A stretch of DNA of 64,000 bases. It comes from an uncultured Verrucomicrobiae bacterium (GTDB lineage: Bacteria; Verrucomicrobiota; Verrucomicrobiia; Chthoniobacterales; JAFAMB01). How positions within the stretch are numbered: the stretch's first letter is position 1; each line of letters begins with the position of its first letter. The stretch is taken from contig CAWEXO010000008.1 in assembly GCA_963813025.1 (NCBI GenBank), positions 192,001 to 256,000 on the forward strand. Direction: 5' to 3'. The notes under the pieces were generated by a model. The model searched no databases, was not told the origin of the DNA, and saw only the letters and a list, made by a program, of their open reading frames with translations. A program made the translations under genes and the position numbers. Below are positions 27,312 to 37,576 of this stretch, piece by piece.

Positions 27312-27368
27312 GGAAATCACCTAAACACATGGCCGTTCAGGCGCTTTTTTATTGGTTCGACCTTTGCA

Positions 27369-27766
27369 TCACGGGCTGATCGGCGTGACCGATGGAAAGT
27401 ACGTTCGATAGCGAGCAACGTCACGGGTAAGCAGGGCCATACCTTCAATGGCGGCGTGAGCGCCAATGTAGAAATCAGGCAGCGGCGCTCGTTTCTGGCC
27501 ACCTCGACGACGATATTGGAGGAAGCACTGGGCGGCGAGAAACCGGCGTCGTAGGGGAGCGGCAAACGCTGAAAATTCCCCGGCGAAAGCGCCTCATCCA
27601 GCACCTCGATTGTGAGAAATCCCAAGGAAACTTCTGCGTATATGATCGGGTTGATCGCCAGAACTTCGCGTTCCGCATGATAGACGAGTTTTTCTTCCGA
27701 CCAGGCCGACCACCGTGGATCGGCGGTCAGCACATCGAGCAGCACGCTTGTGTCGACCAGGACCAT
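27369..27766 (-). CDS. vapC: VapC PIN-domain toxin (one-base frameshift near 27540)
   Basis: MVLVDTSVLLD...IIYAEVS. After the shift the other frame reads AAQCFLQYRRRGGQKRAPLPDFYIGAHAAIEGMALLTRDVARYRTYFP, ending at 27369. Confidence 0.85.
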
Positions 27767-27771
27767 TTCGA

Positions 27772-28008
27772 TCAGGTTTCGCTACGCACCAGCTTCAGGA
27801 GTTCGTCTGTCGAACGTTGACCGGATATCTTCCCCCGCAGTTTCTCGACGAGGGCTCGGCCCCGACCGGACGAGCGGCTGGACTTGCGCAGCCGCAGTTC
27901 ATTTCCTTTAGGACTGACCACAAACTCAACCTCGGTATTTGGCAAAAGACCAAACTGTTCTCGAAAACGCTGCGGGATCGTTACTTGGCCTTTCGAGGTA
28001 ATGCGCAT
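27772..28008 (-). CDS. vapB: AbrB/MazE/SpoVT-family antitoxin
   Basis: MRITSKGQVTIP...FGL...EVEF; directly upstream of the PIN gene. Confidence 0.88.
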   Translation of the reverse strand: MRITSKGQVTIPQRFREQFGLLPNTEVEFVVSPKGNELRLRKSSRSSGRGRALVEKLRGKISGQRSTDELLKLVRSET

Positions 28009-28029
28009 TCTTACTCTTACCGGTAGTAC

Positions 28030-29157
28030 TAGTGCCTAATTGCGTAAGTTAGTTATATGTATGGCGACTTTCCCCTGATGTACCTGGGATTTGGTCCATT
28101 CGAAGGGAGCCGCATTGTTATTGTAGTTCTTGATGAAGGTGTCGATGGCGTTGCGCAGCTCTGCCACGCTGGTGAAGTTTGCCCCCTGGAGGGCTTGGCG
28201 GCTCAAGATACTAAACCAGATCTCAATCTGGTTGAGCCAAGAAGCGTGGGTTGGAGTGAAATGAAAATGCACATTGGGGTGAGCCTTCAACCAGCGATCT
28301 TGCTTTGGCTTATGGGTCGCAAGGTTGTCTAAGACCACATGAATTTCTTTGTCGAGATTTCCGGCAACTACCTGGTTCATAAACTCCAGGAATTCCCGTC
28401 GGCGCTGGCGCCGGTAATGACCAGCCTGCACTTGGCCGCTGGCAATGTTGAGGGCGGCAAAGAGAGTGGAGGTGCCATGGCGCTTGTACTCGTGGCTAAA
28501 ACCCGTCAGCGCCCTGCCATTGGGCAAGCGAATCCAACCTTGGGCTCTTTCCAGGGCTTGAATGGCTGGTTTTTCATCAATGGCCAAGATGAGCGCATTC
28601 TGGGGCGGATTGAGATAAAGACCGACAATGTCAGCGGCCTTGCGCACAAACTCCGGATCGGTGGAAATGCACCAGCTGCGGCGCCGTTCCAATTCAATGC
28701 CTTGTTGGCGCAAAATGCGCCAGACTTGATCGGAGGAAACATCGGCCAGACTCTGCGCCAGCAGTCGCCCATTCCAGCGCCCGTAGCCCGCCGGTGGATC
28801 TTCATCCAGCAGCGCCAAGACCCGCTTGACCGTCATTTGATCATACTTGGCCGGCTTTCCACTGCGTGGCGCGTCTTCCAAGCCAGCCAGGCCTTGGCGC
28901 ACAAAGCGCCGCCGCCATTTACTCACCGTCACCTCGGGAATGCGCAGGCTCTTGGCAATCGCACGTCCACTCAAGCCCGCTGCCGCCTTCAAGATAATCT
29001 GACTCCTGACCTTGAGCCGGTGTTCGACCCGTTGCGCTCGACTCCAACCCTCCAAGAGCTTGCGGTTTTCCACAGAAAGTTTGATGCAACCCATTGCCAT
29101 CCATCCAACAAATCATAATTTTTCATAAATATAAAGAACTAAAGCAACTAAGTACTA
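28030..29157 (-). mobile_element. IS630 family insertion sequence with TA target duplication
   Basis: Imperfect TIRs: TAGTGCCTAATTGCGTAAGTTAGTTATAT (left) vs TAGTACTTAGTTGCTTTAGTTCTTTATAT (right, reverse complement); TA within CTAG at both ends. Confidence 0.9.
28036..29100 (-). CDS. IS630 family transposase
   Basis: HTH, AIDEK, EYKRHGT, VLDNLATH, TPTHASWLNQIEIWF. Confidence 0.95.
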   Translation of the reverse strand: MAMGCIKLSVENRKLLEGWSRAQRVEHRLKVRSQIILKAAAGLSGRAIAKSLRIPEVTVSKWRRRFVRQGLAGLEDAPRSGKPAKYDQMTVKRVLALLDEDPPAGYGRWNGRLLAQSLADVSSDQVWRILRQQGIELERRRSWCISTDPEFVRKAADIVGLYLNPPQNALILAIDEKPAIQALERAQGWIRLPNGRALTGFSHEYKRHGTSTLFAALNIASGQVQAGHYRRQRRREFLEFMNQVVAGNLDKEIHVVLDNLATHKPKQDRWLKAHPNVHFHFTPTHASWLNQIEIWFSILSRQALQGANFTSVAELRNAIDTFIKNYNNNAAPFEWTKSQVHQGKVAIHITNLRN

Positions 29158-29321: not shown

Positions 29322-31649
29322 ATGGTCACCAGCCCCTGCGCGCCAGGAGATGCTTTCAAGCCTGCTTTCGTCGTTGGCGTTACCGGGCACATGGACCTCG
29401 ATCCGGCCGAACGAGATCGAATCAAAACCGAGGTAAAACGGGTCTTCAATTGGCTTCGCGCTTCACCGGGCGATCGGGGCGATGTGAGTCTCGGTCCAGG
29501 TCTCGCCCTGAAGAACACGCCCATCATTCTGCTCTCCTCTCTGGCGCCGGGCGCGGACCAGTTAGTGGTCGAGGCGGCTCGAGAAACGGATCCGCCCGTC
29601 CGAGTATTGGCTCCTCTGCCTTTCCTCAAAGACCAGTATTTGGAGGCTTCCACGTTCAAACAGGATGGCGTTACAAAAGATGAAGCCGCGAGCAAGTTTC
29701 TCGCAGATTTTCCCGAAGAGGATGCTTTCGTGGTCCGTCTCCTCAATGAGATCGATCTCGACGATGACGCATTGCGCGCCAAACACAGATCCATTCTCAT
29801 CGGCCCGGCTGGCAAACTGGAGCGTGACCGCCGCTACGCCGCTGCGGGCGAATACGTGGCTGCCTACTGTGACATCCTCATCGCGTTGACTGACACGGCA
29901 ATAGGCTGCCCGACGTACAACATGCTCGTCGGCCCAGGCGAAAACGAGGGCGCCCGGGCGGTCGCGGAGCTGAAACGGCGCGGAGTAACGCCGGGCCTCC
30001 TGCCTGTTCTGCCGACGTTGAGTTGGGCCGACAACGGGCCCGTAATTCACGTTTACGCACCCCGAAAGCCGAAAGAAGCGCCTGCGATAGCAGCGACGTC
30101 CAGAGGTGCAGCAAGAAAGCAATTGGAGATGCTTTACCCCTACGACTGCCGGCCGCCCGAAGTCAGCGAAAAAGACCACGACAATCCCGCTTGGCGCAAA
30201 GCCGGTCACGCGATCCTGCGAGCCATCGCGGAGCATTTGGAACGGTTGAATACCGAAAAAATTCAGATTGAACTAGCCCGAGAGAATAGAGCATTCGTTG
30301 AGATGCTGCCGGCCGCGATCCAATCAATCATCAGAAGCGTCGCGGAGTCACGCGCTTCCCGGGGCTGGCGAGCATCTCCAGACAACCCTTGATCGGATTG
30401 CTCGACTCCGGCGTCGCATTGCCGACTACAGTGCCCATTACAATGCGCGCCTAACCGGCCTGAAGCGCGCGCTATTCAGTCTCGCTTTTGGCGCTGCCCT
30501 CTTCTTCTCTTTGGCCGACAACTGGGATGTTGCCGTCTGGACACTGCCGCCAATCTTGTTCTTAACCGCCTTGGGACTGACATTTGCCGCCTGGATTGTT
30601 TATTTCCGCTTCAAAAGAACTGCGGCCGCCGAGCGCTGTGACGATTATCGCGCCATCGCGGAAGGACTGCGCGTGCAATTCTATTGGACGGCCTGCGGCA
30701 GCGGAGAGTCGGTTGCGTCGAACTATCTGCAACACCAGCGAGGCGAATTAGGCTGGATCCGTAACGTCATCAATGTCGCCGCCTTTCCACACGAGCCGAA
30801 CCGCGTGCGATTTAACCAGCTTTCGTTCGAGGAGCAACGTGCGACGTTGCAAAGCATCCGCGAAACTTGGATCGCCGGCCAGTGCACTTATTTTAAGAAG
30901 ACCATCAGCGATCTTAATCTCCGACGTGAAGTTTTTTCGACTTACTCTCAAGTTTTGCTCTGGAGCGGATTTATCCTCTTCGCGTTCTTCTTTTTCTTTG
31001 CTCAACACACTTCCACTCCGGTTGTGTCGCACATGCTTGCTCGTTCTCTCTTTGGTGCGGGTTCTCTTATCCTCGCCATGCTTTACCGCGAGACGTATGC
31101 TCGAGGGCGGGCAACCGCCTCGCGCGGAGGGCAGGGCCAACCGGAGTCGTTGATTGGCGGATTCCGCCAGCGGTTTTTTTTGCTGCCCAGAATGTTTTTG
31201 CCGGATCGAGTACGGTCCCTGAAATGCGGAAACCTGATGCTTAACAGCCTGCTGTCAGCCGCCCTCGTCCTACTCATCGTCGGGACGGTTTATCTTCTCG
31301 AGGGAGTTGTGCCTTGGCTCCCGTCTGCCTACAAGCTTGGCAGTATTTCCAAGTATCTGGTCCTTGCCGGAGCCGTTCTCTGTGGCGCATGGGTGGAAGT
31401 TAACTTTTTCGCCGAACACATTCGCCATTACTCTTCCATGGCGTCTCTCTTCCAAGCTGCCGGCGTGCGCTTTGATGAATATTTTGATTGGCTGAAAAAG
31501 CCGGCAAGGACCAGATAGAAGCGGTTGAAAAACAGGTTATCGCGAACATCCAATCCCTCATTGTGGCTGTGGGCCGCGAATCCCTTTCGGAGAACGCCGA
31601 GTGGCTCATCACCCACCGAGCGCGGCCGCTCGAGCCGGTGAGCGTATGA
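29322..31649 (+). CDS. SLOG (YpsA-like) domain fused to SLATT-like multi-TM effector; frameshifts near 30335 and 31497
   Basis: VVGVTGH, LSSLAPGADQLV, YAAAGEYVAAYCDILIAL (SLOG); DYRAIAEGLRVQFYW and about 6 TM helices; third-frame tail VGRESLSENAEWLITHRARPLEP ending at TGA 31649. Confidence 0.75.
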
Positions 31650-31693
31650 ACTGCATTCGTCACAAATCGTCAGCGATTTGTGACGAATGCAGT
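31650..31693. terminator. Perfect 20-bp hairpin between convergent stop codons (possible bidirectional terminator)
   Basis: ACTGCATTCGTCACAAATCG-TCAG-CGATTTGTGACGAATGCAGT; no U-tract. Confidence 0.6.
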
Positions 31694-31695
31694 GG

Positions 31696-32259
31696 CTAAG
31701 GCCCGGCTAAGTGCAGCCAGTTCGTATCTGCCTTTTCGATGTTGCTGCTCGATATCACTCTTAAATCGCTTTCAGCGCGCCTTCATTCCCGCAAAGGTAA
31801 AGTTTCCCCTTATAGACAGCAAACGCGTCCGGACCATCGACATCCGCTAATACTCCGTTAGCTACTCCGTAGGAACAAAATGCGCCATACTGCGGAGCAT
31901 ATTTTCCGGGATCTTTGTCAAAATCGGCTTTATCCGCCGACCGAAACAAACAAGTACGTGGCGCCCTGATAAGTGCTCTAGGATCGCCGGATTCCCTTTG
32001 ACCGGCTTCCCTTGTTTGAAGTAGGCGACCACGTCGTACCCCTTCAAGATAACTCCTTGACTATCTACGTTTACTTTGGCTGGTCGCACTTCCTTTCGCC
32101 TCCTTCGGAGATGCGTTTTGAGCCGGAACGTCTGGCTTCCTGCTATTCTGGGCAGGATCCAATGTTGGCTGCGTCGGAAGCGACAACCGCATTATTTCCA
32201 GCAACAGCCAGCGCGGCTAGCAAGGAAGCCGCAGTCAGCGAGTATAGGAGTCTTTTCAT
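31696..32259 (-). pseudogene. Exported YHS-domain protein, multiply frameshifted
   Basis: Signal peptide MKRLLYSLTAASLL; ILKGYDVVAYF, DPGKYAPQYGAFCSYG, GKLYL and IEKADTNW fall in different frames. Confidence 0.8.
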
Positions 32260-32344
32260 AATCCGACGTCCTTTAAGCGTCGTTCTGACTTAACATAGCC
32301 GAATAAAGAATCGGTAAAGGAACTTTTAATTTGCACTTATGTGT

Positions 32345-32483
32345 TTGGAGTGCGCGCGACTTGTCGCCGCTTTCGGATCACGCGGAGGTAGGAATCGACT
32401 GAGCGGATTTAACTGCGGCACAAGCTGGCAGCAATTTCTCTCGTAACCGTACATCCGGCGTCAGCAAAGCGGCGACAAGTCGC
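32345..32483. repeat. REP-like family A inverted doublet
   Basis: TTTGGAGTGCGCGCGACTTGTCGCCGCTTTCGGATCACGCGGAG ... AAAGCGGCGACAAGTCGC. Confidence 0.8.
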
Positions 32484-32503
32484 TATTGATTCCGAGACAC
32501 GTA

Positions 32504-35500
32504 TCATGTGAGGCATAACGCGTCCAGAATTTTAGCTCGAAGGCGCTGAGCGGGCAGGTCCTTTGGATTCGCGACGAGCGCCTTATCAATCGCAGCCAGC
32601 GCGAGTTCCGGCCGGTGTTGCGCCAGTAGCATCTCGCCGGCGCGCGTGCAGAAAGCGCTGTTTTTCGGGAGCCGCGCCAAGCCGAATGAGCGAAGAAAGT
32701 CGGCGCGCTTGGAGTCGGTTTCAAACCCCGCCAGCGCGATATGAAGCAATGGATGATCGGGAAGAAAAACTAAAGCGTTTCGCAGCCATTGTTCGGTTAC
32801 ATTTGGATTTGTCAGAAGAGCGTTGTCCACCCACTCGACAACTTTGACGTCGCTCGCCGGAAAGATCGTTCGATCACTTCCGGTACTGAAAAACCACCGT
32901 AGAAAGCGCGCATTCGGACCGGAGCTCTTGCGCTAAGGCCTTCAATTGTCTCGTCAGCTGCGATCTGCGTTCCTCATCGACCGCTACGAGCGAGCCATCG
33001 TCTGAAAATTTGAGTCCGCTTGCGACAATCGAGAGCGATTCGACTTGCAACTCTGGGGAACCGGCCATCGAACCAGAGAAGCGCGTTCTCGCTGCGTCGC
33101 CATCCGACTCTTTCAGCTGTCGGGCCAGCGCTACCGGAGTTGCCGCGTCCCAGAGTTTAGCAGTTTTGTCCCAGCTCGCGGTCAGGATCCGAGCACCGTC
33201 CGGACTAAATGCCGCCCATCGGACAGTATCCTGATGGTCAAAGGAGGCGATGAGCTTGCCCGAGACTGCATCCCAGAGCTTGGCGGTGTTGTCTGCGCTG
33301 GCCGTCAGGATCCGAGCGCCGTCCGGACTAAACGCCCCGTGGTACACACTCGCCTGATGGACGAAAGTGGCGATAAGCTTGCCTGAAGCCGCATCCCAGA
33401 GCTTGGCGGTTTTGTCCAAGCTCGCTGTCAGGATCCGGGCACCATTCGGACTAAATGCCGCTTGCAAGACCTCATCCTGATGGTCGAAGGAGGCGAGGAG
33501 CTTGCCCGAGGCCGCGTCCCAAAGCCCGGCGCTGTGATCTGCGCTTGCCGTCAGGATCCGAGCACCGTCCGGACTAAACGCCGCGTCATAGACCGCATCT
33601 TGGTGGTCGAAGGAGCCGATGAGCTTGCCCGAGGCCGCATCCCAGAGCTTGGCGGATCTGTCTGCGCTGGCCGTCAGGATCCGAGCACCGTTCCGGACTG
33701 AACGCCGCATCGTTGACCGCATCCTGGTGGTCAAAGGAGGCGATGAGTTTGCCCGAGGCCGTATCCCAGAGCTTGGCGGTCTTGTCTTTGCTTGCTGTCA
33801 GGATCCGAGCACCGTCCGGACTAAACGCCGCCGCGTTGACCCCATCCTGGTGAGCAAAGGAGGCGACGAGCTTGCCCGAGGCCGCATCCCAGAGCTTGGC
33901 GGTTTTGTCCGCGCTCGCCGTCAGGATCCGGGTCACCGTCGGGACTAAACGCCGCATCGGTGACCCCATCCTGATGGTCAAACGAGCCGATCAGCTTCCC
34001 GGAGGTCGCATCCCAAAGCTTGGCGGTTTTGTCTGCGCTCCCCGTCAGGATCCGAGCGCCGTCCCGACTGAACGCCGCGCGATAGAGACCATCCTGATGC
34101 GTAAAAGAGGTGACGGGTTCGCCACGAGGCCACTTCCCAGAGTTTGACAGTTTTGTCCCAGCTTGCCGTCAGGACTCGAGCACCGTCCGGACTAAACGCC
34201 GCGCGTCTCAACACTCTCCTGATGGGCAAAGGAGGCGATGAGCTTGCCCGAGGCCGCATCCCAGAGCTTGGCAGTTTTGTCCCAGCTTGCCGTCAGGATC
34301 CGAGCGCCGTCCGGGACTGAACACCGCGTCGAGACCACATCCTGATGGGCAAAGGAGGCGATGAGCTTGCCCGAGGCCGCATCCCAGAGCTTGGCGGTTT
34401 TGTCCCCGCTCGCCGTCAGGATCTGAGCGCCGTCCGGACTAAACACCGCGTCGTAGACCGCATCCTGGTGGACGAAGGAGGCGATGCAGCTTGCCCGAGG
34501 CCACATCCCAAAGCTTGGCGGTTCTGTCTCTGCTTGCCGTCAGGATCCGAGCGCCGTCCGGACTAAACGCTCCGCGGTACACAGCTGGCCTGATGTTTGA
34601 AAGACGCGATCAGTTGGCCAGAGGCCGCATCCCAGAGCCTGGCGGTTTTGTCCGCGCTTGCCGTCAGGATCCGAGCGCCGTCGGGACTAAACGCGCGCCG
34701 TTGACCTCATCCTGATGGTCAAACGAGGCGATCAGTTTCCCCGAGGCCGCATCCCAGAGCTTGGCAGTGTGATCCGCGCTCGCGGTCAGGATCCGCGCAC
34801 CGTCCGGACTAAACGCCGCAGTGTTAACCGTACCCTGATGGGCAAAGACAACGATGAGCTTGCCCGAGGCCGCATCCCAGAGCTTCGCAGTTTTATCCCA
34901 GCTTGCGGTCAGAATCCGAGCGCCGTCCGGACTAAACACCGCGTCGACGACCACATCCTGATAGGCAAAGGAGGCGACCAACGGCGGCAGCGCCTTTTCA
35001 CGATGAACGATCAGTTCTTGGAAGAATCGTTCTGAAGCAACTTGATTTTGCGGGTCGAACTTGATCGCACGCGCAAGAAGAGCGATGCCCTCCCGCCACT
35101 CCCCCAACTGAAACTGACGCTCGGCTTGGTTAAAGCTCGCCCAGCTCGCCTGCCGCAATTGTTCCTGCAGCTTCGCCGTGACCTGCGCTTCAGACTTAAA
35201 CGCTTGGGCCGCCGTCCGACGCTGGCGTTCAGCCCGAAGCCATTGAAACCCGGCGACGATCGCGAGAACAGTGATCGCGGCCATCACCGCGTAACGAATC
35301 CGTTCTTGGACCTTGTTTGCGCCGTTTCCGCTCGCAAGTGCTCGCTTGGATGTATTCAATCTGTTCACGGCTGAGCGACGGTTCAAAGTCTCTGACTAAT
35401 TTTTCGCCTTCCGCCAGGGGAAGTCCGGGCCCGAGCAGGTCATCCTTTTGTTGTCCGCGGCTCTGCCAGAGCTTCAGGCTGGAATCCAGGCGGTCCCGCA

Positions 35501-37576
35501 TCCGCAGGAACTCGCGGTTTTCTTTCAGCCATTCTTTGACGCGTTGCCATTCGCGCAGCAGCGCTTCGTGCGCGACGCTCACGGTCACCTCTCCCTGCGG
35601 ATCGGTGTCCGCGACCAACAGACGTTTCTCAATGAATAGATCCACAAAGCCTTTCGCGCCGGCTTTTTGATTGTGGCGGATCCCTTCTGATGTCGACGAA
35701 ATCACGATAAGGCACCGTCCGCCGGTTGGGCACTTCTTCTTCGCCCTGGCCCAACGTGACAAGATGCCGCATGACTACAGGAAACGCCTTTTGTTCGTGC
35801 GGTCGCAAAGTGCTGAACACCCTCTCGGCATGCTTGGCCAGCGCGCCTTTCAATTCCCCGAGTTCGCGATAGTCCGACCACGCGAAGCAAGTCGTCACCT
35901 CGGGCGCCTGCTCCTCGTAAAGCAGTGACAAAACATGTTCGAGCAAGGGCAAGGATTCCGGTGTCGCACGAGGCAGCATCGCGCAGCGCTTGATCCAGGC
36001 GTTGGCCCGTCTCTCGCTCTTGCTCGAAGCGCAGACCGGCCGCTTCGGCCGGCAGCCGAATCATGTTACCGATCTCGTAGGCGGTGGGAGGCCGAAGGTC
36101 GACTTTTCCAGCCGGCTTGGTGAGCTCGATCAGATCCGGGAACTGCTGATACCAAGAGTAAAAGTCGCTCCGTAACGTTGCCAGGACAAAGACTCGACCG
36201 CTCCGAACCAAACCAGCAATCGCGGAAATATATTTCTGCCGAATCTCCGGTGAAAAGCCGGTCGTGAACAATTCTTCCAACTGGTCAACCACCAAAGCCA
36301 AACGGGCTTTCGGTAGCTCCAGCCTCTCCCTCTGCTGCCGAGCCAGGTCCGCGTCGTCCGATCTTCCTGATCCCCGCAGTTGCCGCTCTCTTTCCTCCAA
36401 GATAATGCGAATGCTCGATTTTCCACTCTCGCGCGGCGTGATCGAGCGCGTCCCGGACCCGAAGCGCGACGCTGTCGGAGTGTTCCCTCAATTCGGTCGC
36501 CAAATCACGGACTGCGTTTAGCGATTCCGGGTCCTCCAAGGCCGGCAGCGCAGCTGGACTCCAGCAGCGCGGCTGCCAAAGCATCGAAGCAATCACCATC
36601 GCCTCCGCCGGCTCCTGGTCTGGTCACCGCCCGCCGCCAGAGCCCAATTCCTTCAATCGTTTCGGGTTGCGTTAGCAACGGAAGCACGCCCGCTCGCACC
36701 AGCGAGCTTTTTCCGGAGCCGCTCGCACCCACGACCAGCACAAACGGCCGTTGCGCTCTGACTTGCACTTCCAAGGCCTCCAACACTGCCCCGATTGCCT
36801 TCGTTCTGCCGTGAAAGATGGGCGCGTGTTCGAAATCGAAAACCTCCAGTCCGCGGAATGGGTTTTCTTTCCAACGCCGGGCCTGGCGGCCCCGACCGAT
36901 CAATTGGCGTTGGCGTTCGCGGGAAACCTGTGTGGAGAGGAAATCCCGAAAATGCTCTCGAAACAGGCGCTCGAACTCTTCGAGATTGTAATAATTGTTG
37001 AATGCACCAATGAACTGGCCCTCGCCGTCTTTTAGCCAAGACTCGAAAAACGCGTTGAGCGCCTTCCACTGCCGAAGAAATTCTTCGAGTTTTTCCGGCG
37101 AATCGAGCGGAGGGTTCGGCTGGCTCCGGTTGCGATATACGTGCAGCGCCGGAATGCCGGGCGTCTTTTTACGCTGTGCCACAGCCCAGGCAATCTCGAA
37201 GTCCGTTCCGGATCGAGGCTCACTCCCGTCCGGCATCTGAAATCGAGGATGCAATTTTGTGCCGAGGCGGGACCATAGGATACAAATGACCAAGTCGAAT
37301 TGGGCCGTATTTGGGATTTGGTCCTGATAGCCGAGTTCTGGTGAAAACCGCTGGTATTCCCAGAAGTAGGGACAAAGAATCAGCTCGCTGGATTCCGGTT
37401 CGATCAGAACTATCCGGCGATTCCAGGGATTGTTCGTCGCGTAGAAGATTCGAATACTGAACACTGACCGGAATTCCCAGTTCTTCCGCGGTCACGCGAA
37501 TCAGCCGGTCCGCAATCGTTCGCTCTGCCCGGACGTCTCCTGGGGAAGAAACAAAAACCCGGATAGTCTTCATCAT
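32504..37576 (-). CDS. NLR-like STAND receptor: TIR-like (DUF4062-type) - nSTAND1-type NTPase - TM - 15 WD40 - TPR; split by many frameshifts
   Basis: [58 protein letters not shown] (Walker A), [11 protein letters not shown] (Walker B), [21 protein letters not shown]; hydrophobic helix; WD repeats; [13 protein letters not shown]. Fragments are collinear on one strand. Confidence 0.82.
33145..34990 (-). repeat. Tandem array of about 15 x 123-bp WD40-coding repeats with high DNA identity
   Basis: A TCAGGATCCG-like anchor recurs about every 123 bp (33182, 33305, 33428 ... 34909); 41-aa consensus [41 protein letters not shown]. Confidence 0.92.

Follow-up and report, generated by a model that had tools for sequence, protein, structure and literature searches.

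Does an NLR-like receptor signal to the membrane protein encoded beside it? The question is raised by two large convergent genes in a 64,000-nucleotide stretch of DNA from an uncultured Verrucomicrobiae bacterium (contig CAWEXO010000008.1), the whole of which we call the window. One encodes a receptor with a TIR-like N-terminal domain, an nSTAND1 NTPase and WD40 repeats. The other fuses SLOG, a predicted nucleotide-sensing domain, to SLATT-like membrane helices, and a smaller YHS-domain gene lies between the two. The genome bearing the window (G000; 4.4 Mb, 16 contigs) has close relatives labelled Chthoniobacterales/Verrucomicrobia. Both genes have essentially the positions and domains given in the original prediction, which was made from the window sequence alone. 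Both frames are broken there, as it said, and the genes are real: G001, a member of the same genus, carries them intact, encoding 774 and 1,684 amino acids. Our analysis points to a three-gene module of soil Verrucomicrobia that is real and conserved and makes mechanistic sense, though its parts are known and published predictions foreshadow it. It suggests an immune-type circuit that would cut NAD and open a channel, triggered from outside the cytoplasm.

Domains and predicted topology of the three proteins

The SLOG-SLATT ortholog in G001 is 86% identical to the window gene. This 774-residue protein has no Pfam match, and its AlphaFold model (pLDDT 86, pTM 0.88) confirmed the predicted SLOG Rossmannoid domain, with SLOG-superfamily structures ranking first in a fold search: YpsA (Z 11.9, root-mean-square deviation 3.3, 159 aligned), DprA (Z 10.8), ShosA (Z 10.0) and then MCP and LOG. 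The domain has a conserved glycine-rich loop after strand 1 and is invariant at residues 71, 73-77 and Arg168. Six hydrophobic helices follow, and this membrane region has invariant residues of its own (Arg442, Glu446, Trp454, Glu756 and Trp760). The ortholog matches NCBIfam SLATT_1 at E 0.00097, with 19 bits against a cut-off of 41. Neighbours in ESM feature space (0.93-0.95) carry DUF4231, SLATT_1 or SLATT_3 on 11-46% of their members, and one homologue, L135, matches SLATT_1 at E 5e-6 and aligns to the family's SLOG region at a probability of 97%. The SLOG domain and membrane helices of the predicted fusion are thus in place, and the match below cut-off weakly suggests that the helices are SLATT. 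Foldseek returned no match at E <= 0.001 for models of this protein or of the receptor's N-terminal domain; TRPM2 headed the rows for SLOG-SLATT at E 0.006 and a TM-score of 0.13, and was not counted as a relative. The family comprises 1,704 representatives (50% clustering, E up to 1e-30), with matches in just 2 of 400 other genomes of a phylum-wide sample. Two proteins extend the fusion further: P0074 (1,177 aa) joins a TPR-bearing N-terminus to SLOG-SLATT, and P0096 (1,026 aa) joins a SLOG-membrane protein to an alpha/beta-hydrolase.

The N-terminal domain of the receptor had been predicted to be TIR-like, of the DUF4062 type, with a candidate catalytic glutamate, and a TIR-like fold had been named beforehand as a test. 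Its model has a five-stranded, flavodoxin-like fold (pLDDT 73), and the candidate glutamate is kept in every one of 31 aligned homologues (46-88% identity). The domain is under purifying selection, with a ratio of nonsynonymous to synonymous divergence (dN/dS) of 0.06 against G001. Fold and glutamate are as predicted; the assignment to DUF4062 is weaker. An ESM language-model search (0.96) placed 23 of 30 matches in DUF4062 clusters, where the family is found on 12-42% of cluster members. No DUF4062 structure appeared among the 50 matches listed in a wide fold search, none of the 31 family members matched the TIR Pfam profile, and a sequence search of solved structures found no match for this domain or for the YHS protein. 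We treat it as a divergent DUF4062/NIR-like domain.

Behind this domain, four pieces of the window gene tile nSTAND1 (E 7e-22 to 4e-17), followed by WD40 and a weak TPR match. The intact ortholog has nSTAND1 at E 9.5e-88, 15 WD40 stretches and a TPR-like tail, all as predicted, and Walker A and B are intact in the orthologues. The receptor thus has the effector-STAND-repeat architecture, with intact Walker motifs, that marks Avs proteins and bacterial NLRs. The WD40 repeats are near-identical units of 41 residues that vary at a few positions each (nonsynonymous polymorphism, pN, 0.51 vs 0.19). At these variable sites pN does not exceed its synonymous counterpart, pS, which is saturated, so positive selection is not detectable. 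Counts range from 10 to 16 repeats per protein and miss diverged ones.

Because a conserved hydrophobic helix, overlooked in the original prediction, follows the NTPase, the receptor is probably a membrane-spanning protein whose WD40/TPR sensor faces outward, unlike Avs. In all 14 orthologues the most hydrophobic 17-residue segment (1.72-2.18) lies right after the NTPase, preceded by five to eight Lys or Arg residues, and in most paralogues the segment at this place is at least as strong, reaching 2.8. Most simply, the family would consist of single-pass receptors whose outside sensors can be exchanged. In G454, G012 and G453 the same WD40-tail module is fused to a multi-transmembrane N-terminus, with no STAND and with YHS still downstream. 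No cytoplasmic output domain is evident in these variants, which could be decoys or co-receptors.

The YHS gene, which the original prediction had mentioned as separating the two large genes, is the steadiest partner of the receptor and a core part of the module. It lies directly downstream on the same strand in 13 of the 14 WD40-type loci that a search from the receptor turned up, and we rejected the idea of a chance spacer. The ortholog matches family NF041384 at E 1.6e-35, with 121.7 bits against a cut-off of 70, and one cysteine is invariant in 21 of 21 YHS proteins. Their N-termini, judged by eye, resemble signal peptides, a feature that had gone unremarked, and the product looks exported. 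A redox-active cysteine is plausible because selenoproteins bearing a GxU motif belong to this family, according to passages of one source (PMC13188914). A prediction of the YHS-WD40 complex gave no answer (score 0.00, two runs) and was counted neither way. In G458 the same YHS domain stands at the end of a PAP2/vanadium haloperoxidase-like protein (L156:6711-8423).

Linkage and exchange of partners

A full SLOG-SLATT gene is present in 10 of 43 family genomes and converges on the YHS and receptor genes in nine of them. The original prediction had staked itself on homologues of the two large genes being neighbours elsewhere, and so they are. Seven genomes hold complete three-gene loci (G000, G001, G006, G010, G018, G028 and G458); in G002 and G020 the receptor tail is cut by a contig end. 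Flanking genes vary from genome to genome, even within a set of three from a single genus, and G000 and G001 share a site.

A scan of metagenomes gave 67 loci, 22 of them, some near-duplicates, in the close clade (at least 54% identity) with at least 450 bp downstream. YHS came next in 20 of the 22 and the receptor tail in 16; the remainder were three without room for the tail, one with YHS only and two with neither. Among 18 distinct distant SLOG-SLATT loci, a DUF4062, TIR or NDT-TPR-S gene was adjacent in six (one weak) and an RyR gene in one, and 11, many on short contigs, had no such neighbour.

Seen from the receptor, the third gene is exchangeable. The 14 receptor-found loci comprise six with SLOG-SLATT, three with a TPR-S-cyclase and five with neither (one too short to tell). 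Loci fetched through YHS added further partnerless cases, and all 28 units, a set biased towards YHS, divide into 9 with SLOG-SLATT, 3 with the TPR-S-cyclase, 15 with neither and one without YHS. The replacing gene, TPR-S (E 5e-16) with a class III cyclase (weak match), occupies the SLOG-SLATT slot in G007, G015 and G023. In a quick receptor tree, SLOG-linked receptors fall on several branches of one orthologue clade, while the TPR-S group and a partnerless group, g8, each form a single sub-clade; the partner was therefore probably SLOG-SLATT at first, with one replacement and at least one loss since. TPR-S is predicted to sense signals derived from NAD. Because a predicted reader of such signals fills the same slot in one lineage, the signal-to-effector logic proposed for the locus gains support, tempered by an effector that is dispensable in many lineages.

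A proposed transmembrane circuit and its rivals

How might the three products act together? We propose that the large protein would be a single-pass inner-membrane receptor, its NIR-like NADase and nSTAND1 switch inside, its double WD40 propeller and TPR tail outside the cytoplasm. The exported YHS product would partner the outside part as a co-receptor, ligand carrier or redox cap. A cue from outside the cytoplasm, read by the propeller with YHS, would oligomerise the STAND ring and so cluster the NIR-like domains, which would cleave NAD+ to give ADP-ribose or one of its derivatives. In the cytoplasm, the SLOG domain would bind this ADP-ribose-type product and open or activate the SLATT unit, leading to depolarisation, dormancy or death. 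On this chain as a whole, from outside cue to SLOG-SLATT, our belief and our doubt are evenly balanced. Its chemistry has precedents: passages of two preprints report that DUF4062 yields ADP-ribose and nicotinamide (bioRxiv 10.64898/2026.09.04.749371; 2026.05.01.722283), and another, as far as its passages go, has ADP-ribose binding the SLOG domain of TRPM2 and proposes a cyclic ADP-ribose isomer as ligand of the ThsA SLOG domain (10.1101/2021.01.06.425286).

A number of results weigh against the proposed circuit. The identity of the enzyme domain is one: the fold search tied TIR-like structures (Z 10.2; TIR-STING, root-mean-square deviation 3.6, 133 aligned) with receiver domains (Z 9.7), Pfam DUF4062 (PF13271) was matched at best at E 0.0041, not above its curated cut-off, and, with E values as high as 5 allowed, by 10 of the 31 members, none of the 120 homologues listed bears a precomputed PF13271 annotation, and hhalign gave no significant alignment with either of two canonical DUF4062 neighbours. 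All tested NIR systems, in the passages available, deplete NAD, and signalling is so far a speculation (10.64898/2026.09.04.749371; 2026.05.01.722283). Arg residues also follow the predicted helix, and the topology is read from hydropathy. SLOG-SLATT is optional across receptor-found loci and is unlinked in G022 and in a sister group at 45-49%. Of 36 family genomes, 31 have NIR-STAND proteins, often in several paralogous copies, and 8 have SLOG-SLATT. The TPR-S swap is confined to one clade and hence a single event. The genes converge in nine of nine linked genomes and are not one operon, unlike the co-oriented genes of Thoeris. Finally, PADLOC found no defence system among 103 flanking open reading frames, of which the window supplied 40 and nine relative loci 63.

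In a rival arrangement the receptor and YHS would suffice, with the NIR-like domain as an executioner that drains the cell of NAD+ in the manner of NIR-Avs2, Vulcan and Swarozyc. SLOG-SLATT would then amplify the response as an accessory, or would be a fellow traveller responding to other TIR enzymes. Depletion is how every tested NIR domain works, five of the 14 receptor-found loci have neither partner, the g8 clade lost its partner and kept the glutamate and Walker motifs, and in G022 the SLOG-SLATT gene stands apart. Left unexplained are the cohesion of three genes across several chromosomal positions and genera and the fact that the replacement is again a predicted NAD-signal reader. TPR-S-cyclases also occur elsewhere in five of the six partnerless g8 genomes, though beside TIR-type TPR proteins of their own. 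We think this arrangement unlikely; like the alternatives below, it overlaps in part with the others.

The same wiring might also serve envelope, redox or metal sensing, with the YHS cysteine reporting the periplasmic state and an ADP-ribose-type messenger tuning ion flux or cyclic-nucleotide levels. The flanks are metabolic and housekeeping, with generic PADLOC matches (enzyme, ABC or BRCT) apart from one TIR/STAND-WD40 pair in L090; the site is common to G000 and G001, one of the outputs is a cyclase, the YHS protein comes from a Cys/Sec family, the WD40 variable sites have no pN above pS, and paralogues pair with solute-binding/OmpA proteins or carry kinases. The patchy distribution, the remnants and broken copies (G000:C14, G458:C21), the expansion of paralogues and the NIR, STAND and SLATT parts are, on the other hand, typical of conflict systems, and a non-immune role appears quite unlikely.

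The cytoplasmic Avs/NLR-like receptor of the original prediction, its WD40/TPR end binding a phage protein and YHS unrelated, is very unlikely because the receptor probably crosses the membrane and carries its sensor on the outer side: the segment is only about 17 residues long, of moderate hydropathy and nearly equalled by a second one in L090 (1.88 vs 1.94), and WD40 sensors do occur on defence-associated STANDs, but the position of the helix is conserved in every orthologue, the same WD40 module follows three transmembrane segments in the STAND-less variants with YHS retained, and no neighbour is as steady as YHS.

Returning to the transmembrane circuit, its nearest known relatives include the Thoeris systems. 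TIR plus SLATT has been validated as Thoeris type VII and Shaseng, according to passages of two reports (10.64898/2025.12.03.692087; 10.1101/2024.12.27.630466). These, like Thoeris type I (ThsB TIR with ThsA SIR2-SLOG), set a TIR-fold enzyme beside a separate SLOG- or SLATT-bearing effector, as the module would with its TIR-like domain, and the proposed likeness is the logic of an NAD-derived signal to a membrane effector. Here, however, the enzyme would be DUF4062/NIR-like and sits on a 1,684-residue STAND receptor with a probable transmembrane helix, the genes are convergent, a seemingly exported YHS partner is added and no defence island surrounds them. The Shaseng SLATT, in the passages describing it, lacks SLOG (10.1101/2024.12.27.630466), whereas here SLOG is fused to SLATT-like units. 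PADLOC matched no Ths model (the 2023 version lacks types V-XI) and no AVAST model, giving just a generic HEAT-ARM/WD40 match. By analogy, then, the module would work like Thoeris but fails formal membership: it has no TIR profile, no co-oriented genes and no PADLOC match. The Thoeris survey, in its available passages, left out TIRs in Avs proteins (10.64898/2025.12.03.692087).

The receptor itself resembles the NIR-STANDs PsAvs2, Vulcan, Swarozyc and Evangelion and human TEP1/NWD1, which likewise have an N-terminal TIR-like domain with the glutamate, a STAND domain and C-terminal repeats. Passages of three preprints describe these as NAD-depleting executioners (10.64898/2026.09.04.749371, 2026.05.01.722283, 2026.06.25.731849); the module adds a predicted transmembrane helix and a linked signal reader. 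SLOG and SLATT go unmentioned in the main texts of the three, and the word 'transmembrane' is absent from the two searched for it. Individual parts have been described in sources of which passages were available: nSTAND1 with TIR/DRHyd effectors (PMC8195603), predicted periplasmic sensors on STAND proteins (10.1101/2023.09.22.558884) and WD40 sensors on defence STANDs (10.64898/2026.01.04.697583).

SLOG-SLATT fusions, TPR-S-cyclases, RyR/TrkA proteins and TIR/DRHyd-STAND proteins all appear around the relatives studied here. Burroughs, Aravind and colleagues (NAR 2015; J Bacteriol 2020) reportedly predicted SLOG/SLATT and TPR-S nucleotide-signalling conflict systems with these same four kinds of interchangeable part. 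Passages of PMC9503650 and PMC7159879 cite their SLOG-SLATT and TPR-S predictions. The WD40 array, too, has counterparts.

Near-identical WD40 repeats with variation concentrated at few positions are said to characterise fungal HNWD receptors. Highly repetitive prokaryotic WD40s share this pattern, in the passages of the work describing them (PMC5587647). Unlike both, the repeats here have no pN excess over pS (which is saturated), a partly conserved positional pattern and a probably extracytoplasmic location.

The literature covered (titles, abstract openings and passages) holds no NIR-STAND-TM-WD40 receptor with YHS or with SLOG-SLATT, though figures and bioRxiv supplements (Thoeris survey Fig. 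1C and Table S1; DUF4062 paper Fig. S1) may list some. Three elements are new: a NIR-STAND receptor that probably faces outward, a YHS partner that looks exported and an exchangeable signal reader. The strongest claim would be that the NIR domain is a second-messenger generator in an outward-sensing single-pass receptor with an exported Cys/Sec-family co-receptor, its product gating SLOG-SLATT as ADP-ribose gates TRPM2 or, in the sister lineage, the TPR-S cyclase. We advance this tentatively and think it unlikely. If true, abundant soil bacteria would possess a pathway of Toll-like/TRPM2 design that runs from receptor to channel and could respond before phage genes are expressed, or without their expression. 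With one receptor lineage and two alternative signal readers, the module is a compact natural test of NIR signalling and offers a route to the ligands and action of bacterial SLOG-SLATT fusions. Bacterial NLR-like proteins, known mainly as cytoplasmic sensors of phage proteins, would also gain a sensor that faces outward and a partner that is exported.

Frameshifts, flanks and related loci

By hand tally, the window copy of the module carries about 23 single-base indels in 8.3 kb, roughly 19 insertions and 4 deletions, whereas 36 background genes (13,366 aa) together show 3 frame switches. Real decay of bacterial genes is expected to give stops and to favour deletions. We found no in-frame stop in the 1,898 codons aligned to G001, and the dN/dS of the module (0.05-0.23) resembles that of its intact neighbours (0.12-0.26). 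Given these values and the excess of insertions, the frameshifts are probably a local consensus or assembly error; two soil DNA runs, which hold only relatives, contain related copies in abundance, and these could confuse consensus calling. No RNA dataset was listed as holding the locus. The density of frameshifts, an IS630 element about 200 bp upstream of the SLOG gene and broken copies in relatives would suit a decaying pseudogene cluster, and very recent decay after the IS630 insertion is possible. Decay nevertheless seems somewhat unlikely, and the matter is orthogonal to function. The VapC gene (27317-27766) also appears frameshifted, with a weak PIN match covering residues 2-52 only, and the indel-rich stretch may begin before the module, though the intervening IS630 is intact.

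The original prediction placed the genes in an island with VapBC and IS630. Those genes are present; the island was not borne out. GC content has no clear step at the module, the flanks hold no defence system, and VapBC and IS630 are absent from the same site in G001, the closest relative. We rejected both a defence island and VapBC and IS630 as parts of the system. Promoter and terminator scans at the locus were at chance level, and no equally perfect counterpart of the inverted repeat between the convergent genes (Table 1) was found in five of five relatives checked.

Table 1. Features of the locus and of STAND-less variants; positions within genes, taken from tblastn output and the six-frame translation, may err by a few codons
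Feature	Position	Strand	Remarks
SLOG-SLATT membrane protein gene	29322..31649	+	774 aa in intact ortholog; two single-base frameshifts near 30320 and 31494
SLOG domain (YpsA/DprA/LOG fold), predicted nucleotide sensor	29361..30220	+	
Membrane region: 2-helix SLATT-like unit, then second unit of 4 hydrophobic helices	30373..31646	+	SLATT match below cut-off
Perfect 20-bp inverted repeat between convergent stop codons, candidate two-way terminator	31650..31693	none	
YHS-domain (seleno)protein family gene NF041384	31696..32259	-	3-4 frameshifts; directly downstream of receptor gene
Receptor gene: DUF4062/NIR-like, nSTAND1, one predicted transmembrane helix, ~15 WD40, TPR-like tail	32504..37576	-	1,684 aa in intact ortholog; ~18 frameshifts in window copy
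TIR-like DUF4062/NIR-type domain	36901..37576	-	Candidate catalytic Glu codon 37195-37197
nSTAND1 NTPase	35439..36861	-	Walker A about 36706-36729
Predicted single transmembrane helix after Lys/Arg cluster	35240..35290	-	From hydropathy only
Highly repetitive WD40 array	33140..34990	-	15 anchors ~123 nt apart
Conserved helical/TPR-like C-terminal tail	32504..33070	-	
VapC (frameshifted), AbrB/MazE-type antitoxin, IS630 transposase	27317..29100	-	Neighbours in G000 only
STAND-less variant loci	L149:8057-11245, L151:5157-8423, L152:712-3900		Short multi-transmembrane N-terminus and WD40-TPR module, then YHS

Remnants and relatives of the module occur elsewhere. A second-copy remnant in G000:C14 (419702-420091; L147:9709-10077) keeps the last 35 SLOG-SLATT codons convergent on the end of a YHS gene and adjoins a transposase-like fragment, and a similar remnant lies in G458:C21. 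In G000:C5 (3845-14354; L023), two nSTAND1-transmembrane paralogues without the NIR-like domain have long C-terminal regions, one coiled-coil-like. Similar receptors in relatives (L069-L072) retain the NIR-like domain and stand upstream of a PBP/SBP/OmpA fusion gene; other paralogues have coiled-coil or TPR ends and lie beside solute-binding/OmpA genes. A Ser/Thr kinase precedes the NIR-like domain in L066, L068, L157, L155, L067 and L073, several of which retain the WD40-tail and YHS.

Other arrangements also exist. Just upstream of the three-gene module in L090 (140-7607) is a second unit of SIR2-TIR, a STAND-like WD40 protein and a DUF4231-like membrane protein. In L113/L131, two SLOG-SLATT paralogues lie in tandem and diverge from a gene that has no Pfam match but appears, by eye, to begin like DUF4062. 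In G012, L163:4623-15671 gathers an alpha/beta-hydrolase fusion, a TPR-S-cyclase, TrkA-RyR, SIR2-TIR and nSTAND1-TPR in one cluster, a fuller version of the same network.

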